From the UHGV virus genome UHGV-0268713: DNA of 34,690 bases; one strand, given 5' to 3'. This DNA is from a virus. The notes under the pieces were generated by a model, which worked only from the letters and a program-made list of their open reading frames with translations, searched no databases and was not told the origin of the DNA. Within the stretch, counting starts at the first letter, position 1, and the number at the start of each line of letters is the position of its first letter. A program made the translations under genes and the position numbers. Shown here in pieces: positions 6,209 to 34,375 of the stretch.

Positions 6209-6298
6209 TTACCTCGGTTTGTTACCGTTGAGGTAATGATTATGCGTATCTGGTTTGATGTCAATAGATATGAGTTAAAAAAATTACCCGTTAGGTAA
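6209..6298. promoter_or_regulatory. OL-like operator/promoter region
   Basis: Two perfect TTACC-N5-GGTAA palindromes (6222-6236, 6284-6298) plus a TTACC half-site at 6209-6213, between the repressor terminator and the first leftward early gene. Confidence 0.55.
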
Positions 6299-6355: not shown

Positions 6356-6940
6356 TTATTGTTTGTTTTTTTCGTTCTGGTTGATGACAAATTCAATGTA
6401 ACTTTCGATCTTTGCTTTCTCGGTTTCGGGTAACAATGCGTAGCGCGAGCGATCATAGTTAATGGTCGCAGGGTCGTGCGGGTGAATCAGTAATTCATAG
6501 CCGTGACGCCCGAATGCGGATGCAACATTCTCCAGGGTGGAAATGGAAACGCTGACCTCATTGTTTAACAGACGGCTGATTGTCACCTGGGCGACGCCGG
6601 ATGCGCGGTGTAGTTTTCCCTGCGTTGAAAGGTCGCGGCTTTCGCTCATCCAGCGTTCCAGGTTGTGAGCCGCCAGCTGACCTATATCGCTCGGGCCGAC
6701 AGGCTGAAAACCCTCCTGAGAAAGCGAGCGATCAATATCAAGCCAGTTACGGGGTTTATTGGCGGCAGCTTCAATTTTTCGTGCAACCTGGTCGCCGATA
6801 ACCTTCTTGCCAAGAGCCCAGCGGTTTACCAGATTTGCCTGAGTTCCAAGTTTTTCTGCCATCCGCGTCTGAACACCATTGAATTCACGGTCGATCAAGT
6901 CGTTGAGATTTTGCCTGCGGACGTCCTGGATACTTTTCAT
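6356..6940 (-). CDS. Phage immunity repressor, double XRE-type HTH, no LexA-like peptidase domain
   Basis: 194 aa; two HTH-like segments (QTRMAEKLGTQANLVNRWALGKK... and GVAQVTISRLLNNEVSVSISTLENVASAFG); divergent from the Cro-like gene with operators between them. Confidence 0.8.
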   Translation of the reverse strand: MKSIQDVRRQNLNDLIDREFNGVQTRMAEKLGTQANLVNRWALGKKVIGDQVARKIEAAANKPRNWLDIDRSLSQEGFQPVGPSDIGQLAAHNLERWMSESRDLSTQGKLHRASGVAQVTISRLLNNEVSVSISTLENVASAFGRHGYELLIHPHDPATINYDRSRYALLPETEKAKIESYIEFVINQNEKNKQ

Positions 6941-6995: not shown

Positions 6996-7058
6996 TTACC
7001 CAACAGGTAAATGCACCTCATAGGTAACTATCCTTGATTTTTGTTACCTTATGGGTGA
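6996..7058. promoter_or_regulatory. OR-like tripartite operator region between repressor and Cro-like gene
   Basis: One perfect TTACCCAACAGGTAA (6996-7010) and two imperfect copies (GCACC-N5-GGTAA at 7013-7027; TTACC-N5-GGTGA at 7044-7058). A TTGATT -35-like hexamer sits at 7035-7040. Confidence 0.55.
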
Positions 7059-7380: not shown

Positions 7381-7395
7381 GTACCTCAAAGGTAA
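7381..7395. promoter_or_regulatory. Imperfect operator-like site
   Basis: GTACCTCAAAGGTAA (14 of 15 to motif) just downstream of the terminator and upstream of the replication genes, in an AT-rich stretch. Confidence 0.3.
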
Positions 7396-9277: not shown

Positions 9278-9359
9278 TATAATTACCTGTGAGGTAATAA
9301 ATTATTCTAAAATCTATTGATTTCGTGTCTTATGTGGTTTTTAATTACCTTAGGGGTAA
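9278..9359. promoter_or_regulatory. Promoter region with two perfect operator motifs
   Basis: TTACCTGTGAGGTAA (9283-9297), overlapped by a TATAAT hexamer at 9278-9283, and TTACCTTAGGGGTAA (9345-9359), which overlaps the ribosome-binding site of the gene starting at 9363. TTGATT at 9319-9324. Confidence 0.5.
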
Positions 9360-10845: not shown

Positions 10846-11361
10846 ATGGCGTTAACACACCGCGAACTCTGTCAGATTGCGTACAAGTTCCTTAAGCGCA
10901 ACGGGTTCAAGGTTTGTTTTCATGACCGCTTTATAGCTGTAACCAGTACCGGAGAACAGCCAGATGCTATGGGATTCAGAAATTCAGCATCATGCCTGAT
11001 AGAGGCGAAGTGTTCTCGTGCTGACTTGTTAGCAGATAGAAAAAAGCGTTTTCGTAAAAATCCGTCTCTTGGAATGGGCGACTGGCGATTCTTTATTAGT
11101 GAGCCGGGGATTATTTCAATTGAGGATTTACCACCTGGCTGGGGATTACTTCACGTTGTTAACGGAAGAGTACGGAAAGTACATGGGTGGCCCAAGGGGA
11201 ATTGCTGTTGGGGTAATCCTGACGATAAGCCATTTACTGGGAATAAGCAGGTTGAATGCGATTACATGTTATCTGCATTAAGGCGCATGGAGCTAAGAGG
11301 ACACCTTAATGAAATATATGACGGTGTAATTGTTAATAAGAAAGAAGGAAACGCGGCATGA
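10846..11361 (+). CDS. Hypothetical protein
   Basis: ATG at 10846 with an AAAGGAGA Shine-Dalgarno; 171 aa; possible D...E-x-K motif (EQPD ... IEAKCSRAD). Confidence 0.55.
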   Translation: MALTHRELCQIAYKFLKRNGFKVCFHDRFIAVTSTGEQPDAMGFRNSASCLIEAKCSRADLLADRKKRFRKNPSLGMGDWRFFISEPGIISIEDLPPGWGLLHVVNGRVRKVHGWPKGNCCWGNPDDKPFTGNKQVECDYMLSALRRMELRGHLNEIYDGVIVNKKEGNAA

Positions 11362-12047
11362 CAACTTTAACCGACAAAGAAATGATTAAAGAAATCAAAG
11401 AACGCATAGGCAGCCTGGACGTGCGAGACAATATTGAGCGCCGGGCTTATGAAATTGCTCTGGCATCACTGGCAGTAGTATCGGATGAACGAGCAGCCTA
11501 TGAATTATTTATGGAGAAGCGTTTCGGGGAATCTGTAGATCGCCGTAGGGCAAAAAATGGCGATAGAGAATACATGGCATGGGATATGGCGCTTGGCTGG
11601 ATTATCTGGTGTCACCGCGCCGCCATGCTTCATGGTAGCCAACCTGTAAGCCAAACTTACAACTTGCCAGAATTAATCGAAGGCATGGAAGTTTCCATTG
11701 ATATAAGCACTTGTGATGCTGATTTAGGTAATCGCTATTTCGGCACCGTCACCGAAGCGTTAGAACTTGATACAGCCAAGAATGGTTACATCCTCCTGGT
11801 TCAGGACGCAGAGCCAAACTTCGATGTAAATGGCAACTATCCGGTAACTCCGGATAGTTGGATAAGCTGTAGTGAGCGGACGCCGAACGACGCGCAGTGG
11901 TGCGTAGTGAACACAAAATACGGGTATTACGTGCAATGCTGGTCTGAAGGTCAAGGGTGGCTTGGTGATGATATCAGCATCCCTGAATGCGATGTAATCA
12001 ATTGGATGCCGCTACCGGAACCGCCGCAGGAGGTTAACCGTGGCTAA
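11358..12047 (+). CDS. Hypothetical protein with DUF551-like C-terminal region
   Basis: 229 aa; C-terminal WISCSERTPND...VINWMPLPEPP resembles DUF551 as recalled. Confidence 0.55.
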   Translation: MTTLTDKEMIKEIKERIGSLDVRDNIERRAYEIALASLAVVSDERAAYELFMEKRFGESVDRRRAKNGDREYMAWDMALGWIIWCHRAAMLHGSQPVSQTYNLPELIEGMEVSIDISTCDADLGNRYFGTVTEALELDTAKNGYILLVQDAEPNFDVNGNYPVTPDSWISCSERTPNDAQWCVVNTKYGYYVQCWSEGQGWLGDDISIPECDVINWMPLPEPPQEVNRG

Positions 12048-12652: not shown

Positions 12653-12660
12653 CATGTCAC
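12649..12660. promoter_or_regulatory. 12-bp perfect palindrome GTGACATGTCAC, copy 1
   Basis: Exact 12-mer, followed by GAAGGTGTTAT; 10 nt upstream of the ATG at 12670. Confidence 0.4.
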
Positions 12661-12669
12661 GAAGGTGTT

Positions 12670-12882
12670 ATGCCAAAAATACGCTACGACCTTGAAGATA
12701 TGAGAGATAACTCAGCAAATTTTCCGAAAGAGGTTAAATTTCTCATGCATAAGTATGGTTGCGCCAGGAGGGATATAGTTATCGACAGTCAGCACCCTTG
12801 CGGCGAGGATGTAATTTTCATTCGCGGTAAATGGGAAGGGTATCTTGACGAGAGTTTTTACGATGAATTTGATGGACTTTGA
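12670..12882 (+). CDS. Hypothetical small protein (70 aa)
   Basis: ATG at 12670 with a GAAGGTG Shine-Dalgarno; the ORF track gives 12649-12882. Confidence 0.5.
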   Translation: MPKIRYDLEDMRDNSANFPKEVKFLMHKYGCARRDIVIDSQHPCGEDVIFIRGKWEGYLDESFYDEFDGL

Positions 12883-12924
12883 ATACTGCCGCCAACTATG
12901 GCGGCTTTATTTTGCATGGTACTA

Positions 12925-12957
12925 TTACCACAACGGTAACTATTACCACGGTGGTTA
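12925..12957. promoter_or_regulatory. Tandem operator motifs immediately upstream of terS
   Basis: Perfect TTACCACAACGGTAA (12925-12939) and imperfect TTACC-N5-GGTTA (12943-12957), the latter ending at the terS start codon. Confidence 0.45.
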
Positions 12958-13553: not shown

Positions 13554-15025
13554 CAGATACAGCGTTATCTCCTGAAGAGCAGTTAATCGAGGATATTGCA
13601 GGGTTCACTCACGATCCGCTTGGCTATGCCCTCTATGCGTTCCCATGGGGGGAAGAGGGGACTGAACTGGCACATGCCACCGGCCCACGTCAGTGGCAGG
13701 CTGATGCGTTCCGAGAGATACGTGATCACCTGCAGAATCCAGAGACGCGCTATCAGCCGCTTATGCTGGCACGCGCTTCTGGTCACGGTATTGGTAAATC
13801 CGCATTCATCTCAATGCTGATCAACTGGGGCATGTCCACTTGCGAGGATTGTAAGGTCGTGGTGACCGCCAACACCGACAACCAGCTACGAACGAAGACC
13901 TGGCCGGAAATTATCAAGTGGTCGAACCTTGCTATCACGAAAGACTGGTTTACCTGTACCGCTACCGCGATGTACAGCAATGATCCTGGGCACGACAAGC
14001 GGTGGCGGGCTGACGCAATCCCCTGGTCTGAGCACAACACTGAGGCATTCGCAGGACTACACAACGAGCGCAAACGCATCATCGTGGTATTCGATGAAGC
14101 GTCGAACATTGCGGATCTGGTGTGGGAAGTTGCTGAGGGTGCGCTTACGGACGAAGACACTGAGATTATCTGGGTGGCGTTCGGAAACCCTACACGTAAC
14201 ACCGGGCGTTTCCGCGAATGTTTCCGCAAATATAAACACCGCTGGAAAACTGCGCAGATTGACAGCCGGACGGTGGAAGGCACTAACAAACAGCAGTTGC
14301 AGAAATGGGTTGATGACTACGGGGAAGACAGCGACTTCGTTAAAATCCGTGTGCGCGGCATATTCCCTGATGCATCTGAATTGCAGTTTATCCCTACCGG
14401 TCTTACTGATGAGGCAATGAAACGGGTGGTAACCGCTGCGCAGGTGGCGCATGCTCCGGTGATAATCGGTGTTGACCCGGCATATTCAGGCGTTGATGAC
14501 GCGGTGATATACCTGCGGCAGGGGCTACACAGTAAGGTGCTGTGGACTGGCAACAAGACCACCGACGATCTGATTATGGCGAAGCGTATCGCTGACTTTG
14601 AAGACCAGTACCATGCTGACGCGGTGTTCATCGACTTCGGTTACGGAACCGGTCTGAAGTCAATCGGTGATGGCTGGGGTCGTACATGGCAACTTGTTCC
14701 GTTCGGTGGTGCGTCAACTGACCCTCAGATGCTCAACAAGCGCGGGGAGATGTTCAACTCATGTAAGACATGGCTGAGGCTGGGCGGCATGCTGGATGAC
14801 CAGGAAACAGCGGACGACCTGTCGGCGGCAGAGTACAAAGTTCGAGTGGACGGTAAAATCGTTATCGAACCGAAGGAAGATATCAAGGAGCGGCTTGGGC
14901 GTTCTCCTGGTAAAGGCGATGCGCTACTGCTGACGTTTGCGTTCCCTGTGTCGAAGCGTCTGCGAATTCCCGGGCAGCAGAACCAGCAAGGCAAGGCCAT
15001 CACAGATTACGATCCCTATGCTTAA
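13550..15025 (+). CDS. Terminase large subunit
   Basis: 491 aa; Walker A-like GHGIGKS, Walker B-like IIVVFDEAS, C-terminal acidic nuclease-like region (IGVDPAYSGVDDA). Confidence 0.85.
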   Translation: MTDTALSPEEQLIEDIAGFTHDPLGYALYAFPWGEEGTELAHATGPRQWQADAFREIRDHLQNPETRYQPLMLARASGHGIGKSAFISMLINWGMSTCEDCKVVVTANTDNQLRTKTWPEIIKWSNLAITKDWFTCTATAMYSNDPGHDKRWRADAIPWSEHNTEAFAGLHNERKRIIVVFDEASNIADLVWEVAEGALTDEDTEIIWVAFGNPTRNTGRFRECFRKYKHRWKTAQIDSRTVEGTNKQQLQKWVDDYGEDSDFVKIRVRGIFPDASELQFIPTGLTDEAMKRVVTAAQVAHAPVIIGVDPAYSGVDDAVIYLRQGLHSKVLWTGNKTTDDLIMAKRIADFEDQYHADAVFIDFGYGTGLKSIGDGWGRTWQLVPFGGASTDPQMLNKRGEMFNSCKTWLRLGGMLDDQETADDLSAAEYKVRVDGKIVIEPKEDIKERLGRSPGKGDALLLTFAFPVSKRLRIPGQQNQQGKAITDYDPYA

Positions 15026-15448: not shown

Positions 15449-15648
15449 GATTTTCACCTTAAAAAAATGCCCGGACGAACCGGGCGAACTGGAAGCAATG
15501 AGTTATGCCTTCCGTGGCTGTACTGGTTTACAGCATGAAGTCATCGCAATGGCGTCCTGCTGTAAAAAGGGCGGTGATAGCCCTTCAAGGGAAACCATCA
15601 CCGCCAAGCCCCTGGAACTTCTGGCATCACGGTCCTTAGGCGTGATTC

Positions 15649-15725
15649 TGGCGTGGCATGCAGGATTCGAACCTGCGACCAACCGCTTAGAAGGCGGTTG
15701 CTCTGTCCAACTGAGCTAATGCCAC
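15649..15725 (-). tRNA. tRNA-Arg (anticodon UCU)
   Basis: Minus-strand sequence GTGGCATTAGCTCAGTTGGACAGAGCAACCGCCTTCTAAGCGGTTGGTCGCAGGTTCGAATCCTGCATGCCACGCCA folds by eye into a cloverleaf: 7-bp acceptor stem, D-arm GCTC/GAGC, anticodon stem ACCGC/GCGGT with loop CUUCUAA, T-arm GCAGG-TTCGAAT-CCTGC, encoded CCA. Confidence 0.85.
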
Positions 15726-16047: not shown

Positions 16048-16062
16048 TTACCTGAAAGGTAA
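16048..16062. promoter_or_regulatory. Perfect operator motif upstream of the portal region
   Basis: TTACCTGAAAGGTAA, about 90 bp upstream of the ORF at 16153 and about 310 bp upstream of the portal gene. Confidence 0.45.
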
Positions 16063-31000: not shown

Positions 31001-31100
31001 CGGTGATCGTATTGTGCATAATGTCCGAACCCTGATACCAGGCAATAACCTGTTCTGGATTGCGCCACTAATAAACCAGTTGGATCCGGTGATGCGGTGA
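28086..31100 (+). CDS. Large internal core/ejection protein
   Basis: 1004 aa, directly after the SLT-domain protein; composition is unlike a beta-helical tailspike. Confidence 0.6.
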   Translation: MPVYAQAEDLNNGLIPSGNVLPEQTGFDVALPEGANPEPLPPEPSVWGAAMRQNNILSGFFRPARQFEPVEGYNPYADKNELHGYEYWGAKFADSRSPEETAWIKQQIDDENEDRRLLSDAGVVGTLASIAAGMDPVTVASMFIPGAQGGALARIGSQIAIGAAGTALSEVVLNNQQITRSWGESAAHVAAGAMMSGVFASAGVALSPSVRAAATREVADALDNMSITSATDRAAASLSDGGSVGAMKIDTATLDDLTPVSGGWVGKAAWKAGSYLTPLTRLMESPSKTVRKTTLELAENNFTLKGNERGIETPVAVETRTRGWQREEAAVVVGNKQAYAKYKADGGDMSFDSFRQQVGNAMRSGDVHANPVVQETAQAMRTVLNRVKVEMQKLGLLPPDEELKALGQASYFPRIYKVGKIISERDKFRRILVGWWSRGNKTLDPEDAEIAADIVINKITGAKVPQDFVSVFSVKAAGSTKERTLNVPDSLIRDYLESDVNYVLQRHIREAAAEIELTRTFGKRTMTERLQLIEDEYDSLLREVPEKIKAKYDESVANLKARYESNGEVVPQGKLDSLMRKYEKELRKEQSRLSKSRANDLRDITALRDRLVGTYGMPDDPSSFFVRAGAFLRDVNFTTKLGGMTVSAIPDLARGVMVNGFRNTMKGYASQISQSPAFKASKEEMLKMGIGLEAVLHSRSRAIGDLVDSSSRTTAVEAGMERITDAFGKLTLMDRFNDINKSMNGMLTSDGILSGAFSARRMAKLGINDNMAARIRSEFEKHGEVIDGWHIGNFDKWDDQYVAGVFQSAVLKDVNNTIITPGIGDTPLWASTPMGRTIFQFKSFTTASYNRALLGGLQEGTAQFYYGTAFQIALGSLVYALKEASKGKNVDWSPEKLVLEGIDRSGILGPLMEYNNMAEKATGGAVGLGALFGTGTQSRYASRGFVGSLFGPSFGLADSIIDVTAGVLNGDAGDRIVHNVRTLIPGNNLFWIAPLINQLDPVMR

Positions 31101-31111
31101 GTTAAACGCCT

Positions 31112-31723
31112 TTAGCATGATTCAGGGGAAACCCCAATATTAAATATGAGTGACTCCCCTGAATCAGCATAATAATGTAATATTATTGACTTACGTTGTT
31201 TTCTTGCTTCGTAGAATAAACGCTCTTGCGGCGATAATTTGTGAAAACTGCCGGATGCACAATATATGTTTTTTAACTTTTCGCTGGTTGCTTTTATTGT
31301 ATCTTCTGAGATGTATTTTAGGTATTTATCCGTATAGATGTTGCTACTATAAGAAATTAATGTTTTGCTGTTGTTGTGATGTATTGTATTTTTATCGTTG
31401 AAGTCTGTATTTTTATTTACTGTCATTAGGTTTTTAATGATTACATGTAATGCAATAGTCTCCCCATCATCAATTCCATATTTGATGTCATAGTCAGTAT
31501 ATTTATTTGTTATACCGCTTCCTGATAGCGGCACTATGTACTCTGAGAAAAATGAGTTTGCCGCGTGACCATCAAGAGCAATAGCAGTTTTTTTGTGGTA
31601 AAAATAAAACAATATTGAGAGAGTCAAAATAATAGCGACGCCTAATGCAACCTTTAATATAGATATGGTTTTCAAAATATCGCTCCTTGTTGTAACATAC
31701 ATCAGTAATGTGGCGTTTTTCAA
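31112..31723 (-). CDS. AT-rich single-pass membrane protein (candidate superinfection-exclusion or lysogenic-conversion protein)
   Basis: Strongly AT-rich versus the rest of the window; N-terminal hydrophobic segment ILKTISILKVALGVAIILTLSILFYFY; directly downstream of the Mnt-like gene on the same strand. Start ambiguous (TTG 31723 or ATG 31702). Confidence 0.55.
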   Translation of the reverse strand: MKNATLLMYVTTRSDILKTISILKVALGVAIILTLSILFYFYHKKTAIALDGHAANSFFSEYIVPLSGSGITNKYTDYDIKYGIDDGETIALHVIIKNLMTVNKNTDFNDKNTIHHNNSKTLISYSSNIYTDKYLKYISEDTIKATSEKLKNIYCASGSFHKLSPQERLFYEARKQRKSIILHYYADSGESLIFNIGVSPESC

Positions 31724-31765: not shown

Positions 31766-32197
31766 CTATTCAGGTATTTCAATTCCAAAACCATCTGCAT
31801 CCCATGAGTTTTCACAGATGATGTAACCTAGTTCATTGAGCTTATTAAATGTTTTTTCAAAGATGATCTGGTAATCATTATCTGCAAGTGATTCCAGTTC
31901 AAGGTCATTAAGGTTTATATAAAAACTTGTATGTCCAAGTGTTATTTTTTTATTGATTTCATTAAAAGTTCTTTTGAAAATAATATTTGATATTTCATGC
32001 CGTGCATTGTTTGCAATAATTTTTGCTTCATAAGCAGAAATTACGTCATCTTCATGAATATCTTTCAGAAAGCTGGTGTCAAGACGTTGTACTATTTCAG
32101 CGTTCATTGATCGCTTATTGGCTTTTGCAGAAATTTCTATTTTTTCTTTTACTTCAACGGGAAGTCTGATCCTTAGTTGTGGATCTTCTCTGCTCAT
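31766..32197 (-). CDS. Mnt-like ribbon-helix-helix repressor fused to a C-terminal domain of unknown function
   Basis: ATG at 32197 with a GGTGAAG Shine-Dalgarno. N-terminus MSREDPQLRIRLPVEVKEKIEISAKANKRSMNAEIVQRL closely parallels P22 Mnt (MARDDPHFNFRMPMEVREKLKFRAEANGRSMNSELLQIV, recalled from memory). The remaining ~100 aa are AT-rich-encoded with no recognised domain. Confidence 0.7.
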   Translation of the reverse strand: MSREDPQLRIRLPVEVKEKIEISAKANKRSMNAEIVQRLDTSFLKDIHEDDVISAYEAKIIANNARHEISNIIFKRTFNEINKKITLGHTSFYINLNDLELESLADNDYQIIFEKTFNKLNELGYIICENSWDADGFGIEIPE

Positions 32198-32243
32198 GTT
32201 CTTCACCAAATATTGAGTTACTTGCAATGATTGAAGTATGCCT

Positions 32244-32303
32244 CACCGTGTGCTTGACATCAATGACGCACGGTGTGACAATTGTTTTGCCCCACGGTGG
32301 GGC
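32244..32303. promoter_or_regulatory. immI-like divergent promoter/operator region
   Basis: TTGACA (32255-32260), 17-nt spacer, GACAAT (32278-32283) reading rightward; flanking inverted repeat CACCGTG (32244-32250) / CACGGTG (32269-32275); palindrome GCCCCACGGTGGGGC (32289-32303), whose core CCACGGTGG resembles the P22 Mnt operator as recalled. Confidence 0.45.
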
Positions 32304-32317
32304 TAAGGAGATATGAA

Positions 32318-32485
32318 ATGCAAAAAGCAAAAGAGATGTGTCAACGACGAGTTCGTTTTCCGGACGATGTGAAGTTAGCTATTGAAAGAAATGGCGAAAA
32401 AGAATGCCGAAAGTTCAATACAGAGATTATCTATCAGCTGAGGAAAGTGTATGGACTCACTGGTGAGAAGAATAGCGTGGCATAA
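32318..32485 (+). CDS. Arc-like ribbon-helix-helix repressor
   Basis: ATG at 32318 with an AAGGAG Shine-Dalgarno; 55 aa; RVRFPDDVKLAIERNGEKECRKFNTEIIYQL fits the Arc/Mnt RHH pattern; immediately upstream of the antirepressor. Confidence 0.6.
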   Translation: MQKAKEMCQRRVRFPDDVKLAIERNGEKECRKFNTEIIYQLRKVYGLTGEKNSVA

Positions 32486-32557
32486 AACAGCGAAGCCCAA
32501 CGGTGGCCAGACCGTCAGGGCTTCAGTATCGTAAAACTACGTATAGGAATTAACGAC
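32483..32557 (-). ncRNA. Candidate sar-like antisense RNA covering the antirepressor ribosome-binding site
   Basis: Minus-strand sigma70-like promoter TTGATA (32592-32587), 17 nt, TATACT (32569-32564); hairpin GAAGCCC-N19-GGGCTTC (32492-32524) followed on the minus strand by GCTGTTTTA. Predicted transcript of about 70 nt. Confidence 0.3.
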
Positions 32558-33502
32558 ATGACGAGTATAGCAACAGCGGTATCTACTATCAACGTGCCAT
32601 TCCACGGCGCAGAACTTTATGTTGTCAATCACAACGGAGAACCGTACACCCCAATGAAACCTATCGTTGAAGGCATGGGTATGGATTGGGCTTCACAGTT
32701 TACGAAAATGAAGCAGCGGTTTAAAACCTGCATTGTGAAAATCACAATGCAGCTTCCTGGGGATGAACAGCGCCGTGAGATTATTTGTTTGGCACTTCGC
32801 AAACTTGCTGGCTGGTTGCAAACCATCAGCCCTAACAAAGTCCGCCCTGAAATCCGCGACAAGGTAATCCAGTATCAGGAAGAGTGTGACGATGTGCTCT
32901 ACGAGTACTGGACTAAAGGCCATGTGGTTAACCCACGCAAAGCTAAAAAGGCGTTGCCGGGTAAAATAACCACTGAACAGCAGGAAGCCATTAAACAACT
33001 CGTCATGAGTCGCGGTCAGTCTCTACCAAAAGAAAAACAGGCTAAGGCGATGATCACCATGTGGTCGTCACTGAAATCTCATTTTGGCTGTTCGTACAAA
33101 GAAATTGGTGAAGATCAATTTGCCGAAGCGTTGTCTCTTGTTGCTCGGGTTCCGCTTGAAGGGGAGTATCTCCCTGCTGGATCTGCATCAGAGAATGATG
33201 AAGTGGCAGTCAAGATGTTAGATGCGCTTCGTGAGGCAATTAAAACACAGACAAAATGTTATGGTTATCCACTGAAGCCCGGCTACCGCAGCCTGATTCA
33301 TTCGCCGTCTGGTGTTCTCGGCCTGACGGAGAACTCACTGCTGATGAATTTGCTGAACCAGTTACAGGAAGACGGGCATGACGTATCGGGCGCGGCGGCG
33401 GAACTGACCACCATGTTCTGCTACATCGTCGGTGTGAGTAAATGCCTGCGTGATATCCAGACCCACGCGGAGTACATCAACGACAAGGCAGGGTTCTTCT
33501 GA
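32558..33502 (+). CDS. Antirepressor paralog 2 (AntA-like N-terminal domain plus KilAC-type C-terminal domain)
   Basis: 314 aa; its C-terminal ~75 aa are identical in protein to antirepressor 1; sits downstream of the arc-like gene as in P22 immI. Confidence 0.85.
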   Translation: MTSIATAVSTINVPFHGAELYVVNHNGEPYTPMKPIVEGMGMDWASQFTKMKQRFKTCIVKITMQLPGDEQRREIICLALRKLAGWLQTISPNKVRPEIRDKVIQYQEECDDVLYEYWTKGHVVNPRKAKKALPGKITTEQQEAIKQLVMSRGQSLPKEKQAKAMITMWSSLKSHFGCSYKEIGEDQFAEALSLVARVPLEGEYLPAGSASENDEVAVKMLDALREAIKTQTKCYGYPLKPGYRSLIHSPSGVLGLTENSLLMNLLNQLQEDGHDVSGAAAELTTMFCYIVGVSKCLRDIQTHAEYINDKAGFF

Positions 33503-33540
33503 CAGAACGGCGGCACAGGGATGTGCAAAACGGAACTATC

Positions 33541-33552
33541 GTGACATGTCAC
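33541..33552. promoter_or_regulatory. 12-bp perfect palindrome GTGACATGTCAC, copy 3
   Basis: Exact 12-mer, immediately 5' of a terminator hairpin. Confidence 0.4.
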
Positions 33553-33578
33553 AGGCCGCTTTCGCGGCCTTGTTTTTA
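33553..33578 (+). terminator. Rho-independent terminator after antirepressor 2
   Basis: AGGCCGC-TTTC-GCGGCCT followed by TGTTTTT. Confidence 0.6.
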
Positions 33579-33807: not shown

Positions 33808-33830
33808 ACAAAAAAGCCCGCGCTGCGGGC
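33808..33830 (-). terminator. Rho-independent terminator for the accessory operon
   Basis: GCCCGC-GCT-GCGGGC hairpin (33816-33830) followed on the minus strand by TTTTTTGT. Confidence 0.55.
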
Positions 33831-34375
33831 TATTCCTTCCATTTATCAGAAAAAAGATCTTCTTCTAAAGGCATTGGTTCTGTTTTTGTTTTCTCAAAGA
33901 ATTGATAACTGATAGTGATTGCTGCCTCTTTAAACTCTTCTTGCTCAGTTATGTTGTGAGCATCTGCGTCAACAAAAAACATAACCAGCGCATCACGATT
34001 GTGATTTACCGAATAAACTAAAAAGCAATCACTTGTTGGTATGCATTTTACTTGTACAGACGCTATATTTTTCCATGCATCCCAAGATGATTTTTTACCA
34101 GTGTGTTTTTTATCACTATCTTCTGGAATATAGTCTTGGTTATCGACATGAGTATGCCTGACATTTAGTTTAAGCATTTCTGTCGGACGAGCAAATGCAG
34201 CATCTTTACCAAGAGATGGATGGTATCCCGTTTTCCAATACTGGGTAAAGGCATCAGATACTTTCTTCAGCTCAAGATCAGATGCACAAAGGGCCGAGAA
34301 ATTTTGCGTATGCAATACTCGACCCTTATATCTGACAATTTGATTTTTATCATTCTGCGACGCAGACGAACTCAT
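33830..34375 (-). CDS. Hypothetical protein (181 aa), AT-rich accessory gene
   Basis: ATG at 34375 with an AAGGA Shine-Dalgarno; low GC; no confidently recognised domain. Weak resemblance of HTH and LVY...H segments to YafO-type toxins is unverified recall. Confidence 0.55.
   Translation of the reverse strand: MSSSASQNDKNQIVRYKGRVLHTQNFSALCASDLELKKVSDAFTQYWKTGYHPSLGKDAAFARPTEMLKLNVRHTHVDNQDYIPEDSDKKHTGKKSSWDAWKNIASVQVKCIPTSDCFLVYSVNHNRDALVMFFVDADAHNITEQEEFKEAAITISYQFFEKTKTEPMPLEEDLFSDKWKE

Follow-up and report, generated by a model that had tools for sequence, protein, structure and literature searches.

The immI circuit of phage P22 is already known, and so is the idea that P22-like phages (epsilon34, CUS-3, HK620 and others) carry an 'ant moron', a variable block of the late operon with high gene flux that often holds mnt, arc and ant (PMC2629481). 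A second kind of antirepressor system has been described for phages SPC32H and SPN1S (Kim & Ryu 2013; Kim et al. 2016, PDB 5D50; as reported in PMC7380047 and PMC9638917). SPC32H Rep binds DNA as a tetramer, which is taken apart when a tetrameric Ant attaches to two Rep dimers (PMC9638917), and SPC32H-type phages are induced via a LexA-controlled Ant (PMC7380047). Bro-N antirepressors, such as ORF4 of vB_EcoP_ZX5 and p23 of phiV10, form a third group. Overexpression of ZX5 ORF4 lowered prophage titres about 1000-fold, and the sequence of the ZX5 repressor is stated to be identical to that of the phiV10 repressor (PMC9782041). Here we describe a locus near the end of the virus genome UHGV-0268713 (34,690 nucleotides, the whole of which is called the window). 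The locus is likely a complete P22 immI-type antirepressor control cassette that provides a second, LexA-independent route to inactivation of the repressor Rep in a TL-2011b/phiV10-like prophage.

The genes, the RNA and the sites of this cassette are present in a P22-like arrangement and are conserved, and its Ant and the phage's Rep are homologous to chains of one solved complex. We identify the window as a TL-2011b/phiV10-like (epsilon15-type) Escherichia coli prophage with an integrase gene at its start. Its virion module is of the epsilon15 type (GP7 capsid, head-tail connector, T7_gp14-family internal protein and SLT-domain internal protein), and TL-2011b has been grouped with phiV10 and epsilon15 in Uetakevirus (PMC9782041). 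The 3.7 kb around the cassette showed 97.6% identity to Escherichia phage TL-2011b (locus L001) and 99.3% identity to prophages in bovine E. coli, including the relative that we call L003. Comparison of open reading frames (ORFs), orientation and neighbours indicated that mnt is divergent from the arc-ant operon and lies between ejection-protein genes and the tailspike gene, as in P22 immI. The cassette follows the internal virion genes of the T7_gp14/SLT type, which end at 31100, and the tailspike gene comes next in TL-2011b and L003. Because the gene order in the P22 record (NC_002371, locus L002) is gene 16, sieA, mnt, arc, ant, tailspike, the initial annotation was right to place the module in the same relative position as P22 immI.

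The cassette is likely an 'ant moron'; it occupies a hotspot for accessory genes, with the internal-virion (ejection) genes on one side and the tailspike gene on the other. phiV10 and SPC32H have a small ant gene and no immI cassette, and therefore the cassette represents an insertion into the hotspot upstream of the tailspike gene; epsilon15 also has no cassette. Like the ant morons of PMC2629481, this is an accessory late-operon block with mnt, arc and ant. Those blocks were described in P22-like virions only, whereas the host genome here is Uetakevirus-like, and the long-Mnt cassette also occurs in siphovirus or lambda-like settings. The likeness to P22 immI extends from gene order, orientation and location to a homologous N-terminal ribbon-helix-helix (RHH) domain in Mnt, an Arc-type gene of 53–55 aa, a sar RNA whose promoter, Psar, falls within the opening codons of ant, a P22_AR_N domain in Ant, and a palindrome with the core CCACGGTGG at a nearly equal distance from the Pant -35 (37 bp here and 38 bp in P22).

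The antisense RNA sar was missing from the element list of the initial annotation and was found by Rfam; with sar present, all components of P22 immI are present. It is complementary to the ant ribosome-binding site (AGGA, 32545-32548) and folds with -22.7 kcal/mol (z -3.3), and its 3' end forms a terminator hairpin, GAAGCCC...GGGCTTC with a T run, which is a terminator-like site of the minus strand. The Psar -10 lies within the conserved first ant codons, ATGAAyAGTATAGCA, which are common to P22 and other cassettes. Among the related loci that were scanned, sar was found at the same place in five (L004, 59.4 bits; L010, L013, L015 and L017).

A near-consensus promoter had been claimed for the mnt-arc spacer, and the promoter scan located it with 10/12 matches (Pant); its layout matches that of the annotated P22 Pant, TTGACA-17-TATATT. 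On the other strand, Pmnt may be a weak leftward promoter whose -35 overlaps the Pant -35 back-to-back, whereas the P22 promoters overlap fully. Of the six copies of the heptamer CAC(C/G)GTG in the 34.7 kb of the window, three fall within 56 bp here (centres at 32247, 32272 and 32296). Each of the three is the centre of a 15-bp site (O1, O2 and O3), and all half-sites fit GnCnCAC. The annotated mnt operator of P22 (NC_002371) reads ataGGTCCACGGTGGACCtgt; its palindrome, GGTCCACGGTGGACC, shares the core CCACGGTGG with O3. Since this core stands within the annotated operator, the match to P22 that had been claimed was correct. A distinct P22-type Arc operator of 21 bp (the ATGATAGAAGCACTCTACTAT type) was absent from the Pant spacer, where instead GACGCACGGTGTGAC, of the same class as O1 and O3, was found. 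The cassette has three candidate operators of one class, whereas P22 has one Omnt and an unrelated 21-bp Oarc. A fourth operator was considered at 32495-32506 in the sar terminator hairpin, just after arc, where GCCCAACGGTGG is identical to the left part of O3 at 11 of 12 positions. It was rejected and treated as a coincidence because it has no CAC core; the hairpin also varies among related loci.

These regulatory blocks were better conserved than the protein presumed to bind them. A scan of a genome collection gave 14 further full-length loci, and the mnt-arc spacer was aligned over 17 loci from 14 genera. Conservation was 0.93 for the block of the Pmnt -10, O1 and -35, 0.96 for the O2/-10 block and 0.88 for O3, compared with 0.56 for the mnt leader, 0.62 for the gap from the -10 to O3 and 0.51 for the arc leader. 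The Mnt-like proteins encoded in related loci are about 60–67% identical. Equivalents of Pmnt in the 17 loci have CATAAT and a -35 TTG that are invariant or nearly so, and a palindromic candidate operator of the Mnt type overlapping the predicted Pant start site was kept in all 17.

The divergent gene had been read as an Mnt-like RHH gene, and this was supported by a Pfam Arc match (1.1e-14 over aa 2–46) and by BLASTP alignment to P22 Mnt (32% identity, E 3e-14); PDB 1mnt was matched at 1.8e-7. We set the start at the ATG at 32197 because the homologues from many genera all begin with MSREDPQLRIRLP, and an upstream TTG was rejected for the same reason. The helix at aa 55–87 aligns with residues 52–83, the C-terminal region, of P22 Mnt, and about 55 residues beyond P22 Mnt (143 aa here, 83 aa in P22) form an extra alpha/beta subdomain. 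A structure model with a mean predicted local distance difference test score (pLDDT) of 80.5 showed two RHH helices, the long helix and this subdomain. Fold comparison of the model gave no convincing structural neighbour for aa 88–143, a part that is confidently modelled, well conserved and present family-wide. The RefSeq label of P22 Mnt (L002 14519-14770) is 'partition protein ATPase', as are the labels of PHROGs 795 and 2685; this looks like a mis-annotation propagating to Mnt homologues.

The Arc-like gene that had been proposed at 32318-32485 found support in weak homology: the protein matched the PHROG 'Arc-like repressor' at 3.4e-5 and P22 Arc at 4e-5 (BLASTP), and hhalign joined it to the Mnt-like family with 81.5% probability (E 1e-5). 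When its family profile was compared with PDB sequences, Arc was reached only at E 0.06–0.13. In other genera the gene is always adjacent to the long mnt. In both RHH proteins the recognition strand seems to carry Gln/Arg(Lys)/Arg, and this apparently shared triad is compatible with a single operator class. The corresponding residues are reportedly, from the work of Knight and Sauer, His/Asn/Arg in P22 Mnt and Gln/Asn/Arg in P22 Arc, and thus differ from the Q/R/R seen here.

The reading of 32558-33502 as an antirepressor gene held: Pfam recognised a P22_AR_N domain in the product (9.7e-45), and the protein shares 40% identity with P22 Ant over 217 aa (Ant aa 1–214). Unlike P22 Ant, it has no P22_AR_C domain by Pfam search. 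At the DNA level, 32492-33167 (sar and Ant aa 1–203) showed 85–88% identity to the ant genes of CUS-3 and S. Kent 1-2-1, with the remainder unlike, and 32796-33167 (Ant aa 80–203) showed 91% identity to the ant gene of a Shiga toxin (Stx) phage. Ant aa 233–309 instead matched PDB 5D50_E, 'Anti-repressor protein' (E 8.1e-14). This C-terminal domain is 41% identical to the 86-aa SPC32H Ant and 87–91% identical to the C-termini of Bro-N 'anti-repressors' of E. coli Uetakevirus phages (91% for the last 89 aa of ZX5 ORF4). By its sequence, Ant is a chimera: its first two thirds are of the P22/CUS-3 type, and aa 233–309 are of the SPC32H-antirepressor type. Within the window the SPC32H-type module was found only as this C-terminal domain and not as a free-standing gene.

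A possible origin of the domain is indicated by a 292-bp inverted repeat with 91% complementarity. It was detected in L003 (arms 11235-11526 and 12654-12945), and the window coordinates were mapped by offset. Arm 1 covers the 3' end of ant, and the Bro-N antirepressor gene contributes arm 2 with its own 3' end. Arm 2 starts at about 34653 (read by eye), so that the window holds 34653-34690 and the remainder lies past its end; because the second arm is cut in this way, a search of the window alone reported no inverted repeat. The repeat between the 3' ends of the two genes suggests that the incoming ant perhaps gained its C-terminus by recombination with the resident Bro-N gene. Like the Bro-N antirepressors, Ant has a C-terminal domain of about 90 aa and occurs with the same Rep sequence. 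It differs from them in having P22_AR_N in place of Bro-N at the N-terminus, and in the predicted control by Mnt, Arc and sar, which theirs lack.

The main repressor of the prophage is of the Rep type, whereas that of P22 is the S24-cleavable C2. The initial annotation had noted a repressor without an autocleavage domain, and indeed only helix-turn-helix domains were found, with no Peptidase_S24. Rep is 42% identical to SPC32H Rep and 100% identical to phiV10 Rep, and it matched PDB 5D50_A, 'Repressor', over its full length (E 4e-42). The Ant C-terminus and Rep therefore match two chains, E and A, of one solved complex, 5D50, and on the strength of this pairing the phage's own repressor is probably the target of Ant. 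Phage records with a member of the Rep family (36) and those with a member of the Ant-domain family (34) fall into the same groups (Escherichia, Salmonella, Klebsiella and Enterobacter). The system resembles that of SPC32H and SPN1S in the homology of Rep and of the Ant domain, in phage lineage and in the neighbourhood upstream of the tailspike gene. It differs in that their Ant is a free 86-aa protein under LexA control, whereas here the module forms the C-terminal part of a P22-type Ant of 314 aa that is predicted to be controlled by Mnt, Arc and sar.

The palindrome TTACC-N5-GGTAA, with up to one mismatch allowed, occurs in 12 copies in the window compared with 0.47 expected, with none at Pant. 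Copies flank the Rep gene, and ORF coordinates suggest that the terminase, portal and YafO-like genes each have copies upstream as well. The palindromes are probably Rep operators distributed across many promoters.

Could the immI Ant respond to DNA damage? LexA sites were scored with a position-specific scoring matrix (PSSM) trained on 17 LexA boxes of E. coli, which themselves scored 12.7–25.5. No credible LexA box was found in the window or at Pant; the best score in the window was 10, and LexA control of Pant was rejected on this basis. CTGT-N8-ACAG at 15518, the sole copy, was also rejected as a LexA box, since it arises by chance in 29% of shuffles; it adjoins a tRNA gene. In TL-2011b, a LexA box (AACTGTATAAATATACAGTA; 35540-35559) scored 26.2, over all training boxes, and stands directly upstream of an 85-aa gene (35263-35520, minus strand). 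L003 has a copy with one mismatch (13953-13972) before its own 85-aa gene (13676-13933, minus strand). The 85-aa small Ant of TL-2011b and that of L003 are each 88% identical to SPC32H Ant, and the gene would map about 2 kb past the window end. The LexA-linked small ant, as judged from these sites, is thus likelier than the immI ant to be the SOS trigger of the phage lineage. The antirepressor-driven induction proposed initially is supported by the match of Ant and Rep to the 5D50 chains and by the non-cleavable Rep, with a reservation as to SOS induction, since Pant has no LexA box. As with the LexA-controlled antirepressors of the Gifsy/Fels prophages and 186 Tum (PMC7380047), the repressor is predicted to be inactivated by protein binding and not by cleavage; those antirepressors are SOS-regulated, and ant here, by its sequence, is not.

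The immI Ant could also be the physiological induction trigger itself, if a signal acting via the extra C-terminal subdomain of Mnt freed Pant and Ant then inactivated Rep independently of LexA. Such a role would suit a Rep that cannot autocleave and an Ant with a predicted Rep-binding module, and the subdomain at aa 88–143 is conserved family-wide and confidently modelled, with no fold match. We regard it as unlikely, because relatives have a small Ant behind a canonical LexA box, 88% identical to the characterised SPC32H Ant, and P22 ant mutants are still SOS-inducible (PMC7380047). The same long Mnt moreover serves unrelated phage backbones with differing antirepressors, which fits generic oligomerisation better than a phage-specific sensor, and the helix at 55–87 aligns with the C-terminal region of P22 Mnt.

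As extrapolated from homology and layout, the regulatory steps of an immI-type cassette with a second route to Rep would be as follows. In the lysogen, the Mnt-like repressor, made from the weak leftward promoter, would sit on the 15-bp palindromes GnCnCAC-S-GTGnGnC over Pant. Binding to O2 (spacer/-10) and O3 (about +1) would keep arc and ant silent, and through O1, in the Pmnt spacer, mnt might regulate its own expression. In a newly entered cell that has no Mnt, the near-consensus Pant would fire and give a burst of Arc-like protein and Ant. This burst would be shut off by the Arc-like RHH protein at the same operator set, and by the 68-nt sar, which would be transcribed from Psar and pair with the ant ribosome-binding site. 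Through aa 233–309, Ant would bind the phage's own Rep and the Rep of homoimmune Uetakevirus prophages, and repression would be lifted. SOS induction would most likely proceed via the separate small Ant behind the LexA box just past the window.

Several observations weigh against this scheme. Pmnt matches the consensus at 8/12 positions, under the threshold of the promoter scan, and O1 of the window deviates from the family consensus, GCCCCAC(G/C)GTGGGG. The Arc-like protein has no Pfam match, and its AlphaFold2 model is of low confidence (pLDDT 56; two helices at 14–25 and 27–44), too low to confirm the RHH fold. All three operators follow one half-site rule and both RHH proteins appear to share the triad, so that the sequences do not pair either protein with a particular operator. 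SPC32H Ant acts as a free 86-aa tetramer (PMC9638917), and here the domain is fused to about 230 N-terminal residues; the precedent of ZX5 ORF4, a Bro-N fusion, suggests that it may function in fused form. The mnt gene of TL-2011b has one extra C (CCC instead of CC) near codon 9, at about 30910 in L001 or about 32172-32173 in the window, and it is therefore annotated from an internal Met as a 113-aa 'hypothetical protein'. If real, this 1-bp insertion would argue that Mnt is dispensable; it is possibly a homopolymer sequencing error.

The degenerate O1 and the frameshifted mnt of TL-2011b would also fit a decaying remnant, in which the genes are present and the circuit no longer functions, and lysogens of the P22-like phage Kapi1 showed no detectable mnt transcripts (PMC12922286). 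This explanation is highly improbable: all three ORFs of the cassette are intact, both promoters found by the scan match at 10/12, and sar exceeds the Rfam threshold. Of 5426 complete E. coli genomes, 36 carry the cassette, each with one copy in the chromosome and the region 97.7–100% conserved, and in 25/25 of the records listed among these 36 genomes mnt is annotated as 'Arc family DNA-binding protein'.

The preferred reading, a working immI-type cassette, is in accord with its distribution. The long Mnt-like family comprises 260 clusters in Enterobacterales at about 60–69% identity, for which 'Arc family DNA-binding protein' is the sole annotation. The cassette lies among siphovirus or lambda-like tail genes in Enterobacter, Salmonella and Yersinia pestis, and there the long mnt always faces a 55-aa gene with an antirepressor gene behind it. 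Across the related loci, the gene that follows arc encodes P22_AR_N or Bro-N, either of them with or without P22_AR_C, or else KilA-N with or without ANT, giving at least four antirepressor architectures, and most of these genes start with close variants of ATGAAyAGTATAGCA. A constant cassette and a mostly constant start, set against a varying antirepressor, indicate a conserved, mobile regulatory unit with an exchangeable payload.

Such mobility, within the late operons of many phage types, would also be expected of a recent passenger with no role in the phage's own switch, which might cross-induce co-resident prophages or modulate late read-through to the tailspike gene, an idea raised for P22 (PMC2629481). 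phiV10, SPC32H and epsilon15 manage without the cassette, and the first two thirds of Ant are also found in the antirepressors of Stx and CUS-3 phages, which do not have its C-terminal domain. The domain, however, occurs in Rep-type phages only, and it shares about 90% identity with the end of the resident Bro-N antirepressor, from which we infer that the payload was re-fitted to the phage's own repressor family; a mere passenger is decidedly improbable.

More tentatively, the long-Mnt/Arc/sar unit might be a portable 'plug-in' controller, whose payload is swapped at the Psar-bearing first ant codons and at a joint before the target-binding C-terminal domain. This would yield three proteins that share one Rep-binding module, with Rep inactivation integrating several independent inputs; we think it possible and would not favour it at present. 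If it is true, the shared module would stand under different promoters in the small Ant (LexA), in the Bro-N-Ant, which lies downstream of it, and in the P22_AR_N-Ant (Mnt/Arc/sar), and the C-terminal subdomain of Mnt could be one input sensor.

Table 1. Coordinates of the cassette, its predicted elements and the repressor gene in the window.
Feature	Position	Strand	Remarks
immI-type cassette, whole	31766-33570		mnt-like minus; arc-like and ant plus; sar minus
mnt-like gene	31766..32197	(-)	143 aa; N-terminal RHH, long helix aa 55-87, extra alpha/beta subdomain aa 88-143
Candidate Pmnt	32235..32263	(-)	TTGATG (32263-32258), 17-nt spacer, CATACT (32240-32235)
Candidate operator O1	32240..32254		GCCTCACCGTGTGCT; fills Pmnt spacer, abuts Pant -35
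Predicted Pant	32254..32282	(+)	TTGACA, 17-nt spacer, GACAAT, TG extended -10; promoter scan 10/12
Candidate operator O2	32265..32279		GACGCACGGTGTGAC; in Pant spacer and -10, where P22 has Oarc
Candidate operator O3	32289..32303		GCCCCACGGTGGGGC, perfect 15-bp palindrome; 37 bp past Pant -35, about +1 to +15
arc-like gene	32318..32485	(+)	55 aa; presumed DNA-facing strand residues Q9, R11, R13
sar antisense RNA	32489..32556	(-)	Rfam RF00262 full-length, 45.2 bits, cutoff 43, E 3.3e-7
Predicted Psar	32564..32592	(-)	TTGATA, 17-nt spacer, TATACT; promoter scan 10/12; inside ant codons 3-12
ant	32558..33502	(+)	314 aa; P22_AR_N 9.7e-45; phrog_524, phrog_245 'anti-repressor Ant'
Ant aa 12-123, P22_AR_N domain	32591..32926	(+)	Pfam
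Ant aa 233-309, SPC32H-antirepressor-like domain	33254..33484	(+)	presumed repressor-binding module; in place of P22_AR_C
Inverted repeat arm 1	33234..33525		292 bp, 91% complementary; arm 2 = 3' end of Bro-N antirepressor gene
Terminator-like hairpin with T run	33553..33570	(+)	50 nt past ant stop codon
Rep, prophage repressor	6356..6940	(-)	presumed Ant target; only Pfam HTH_3, no Peptidase_S24
TTACC-N5-GGTAA sites	136-150, 6222-6298, 6996-7058, 7381-7395, 9283-9359, 12925-12957, 16048-16062, 34590-34604		palindromes

In the position equivalent to sieA, the window has an AT-rich gene (31112-31723, minus strand; 30–33% GC) for a protein of 187–203 aa with a hydrophobic N-terminal stretch (phrog_8033). 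The 203-aa membrane protein was ruled out as a SieA homologue, the comparison to SieA giving only E 0.15. The inverted repeat brackets 1.1 kb of cargo, namely a small membrane protein, a YafO-like toxin and a 59-aa ORF. The YafO-family toxin-like gene (33830-34402, minus strand) was barely over the Pfam cutoff (1.2e-5), and the 59-aa ORF (34350-34529, minus strand), which overlaps it upstream, could be an antitoxin. Some E. coli genomes match the cargo region in part (about 79–80% covered), with no annotated YafO toxin; the repeat could mediate inversion or cargo exchange. A tRNA-Arg gene (anticodon TCT; 15649-15725, minus strand) lies between the terminase and portal genes. PADLOC gave no match for any of the module genes and their neighbours, and NCBIfam gave only sub-threshold matches, for the Mnt-like protein and Rep. 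The published attP core of Uetakevirus, ATTGAGTGGGAATGATT, was not found in the window.

Public records already label genes of this kind 'Arc-like repressor' and 'anti-repressor Ant'. In the searchable literature we found no description of a long-Mnt cassette family with three like operators, of the spread of the cassette into other phage types, or of an Ant chimera with an SPC32H-type module. The findings mean that the textbook immI circuit is not tied to P22-like phages and that the unit travels through many Enterobacterales prophages, the antirepressor of the travelling cassette being re-fitted to whichever type of repressor is resident. The window encodes recognisable counterparts of both partners of a solved complex, and binding of Ant 233–314 to Rep is a directly testable prediction. 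The findings also call for caution, in that an antirepressor together with a non-cleavable repressor need not mean an SOS route; it is another gene that is linked to LexA. Cattle-associated and Shiga-toxin-producing E. coli are among the hosts of this prophage family, and because its Rep is identical to that of phiV10, the cassette may influence superinfection immunity and cross-induction among such phages.

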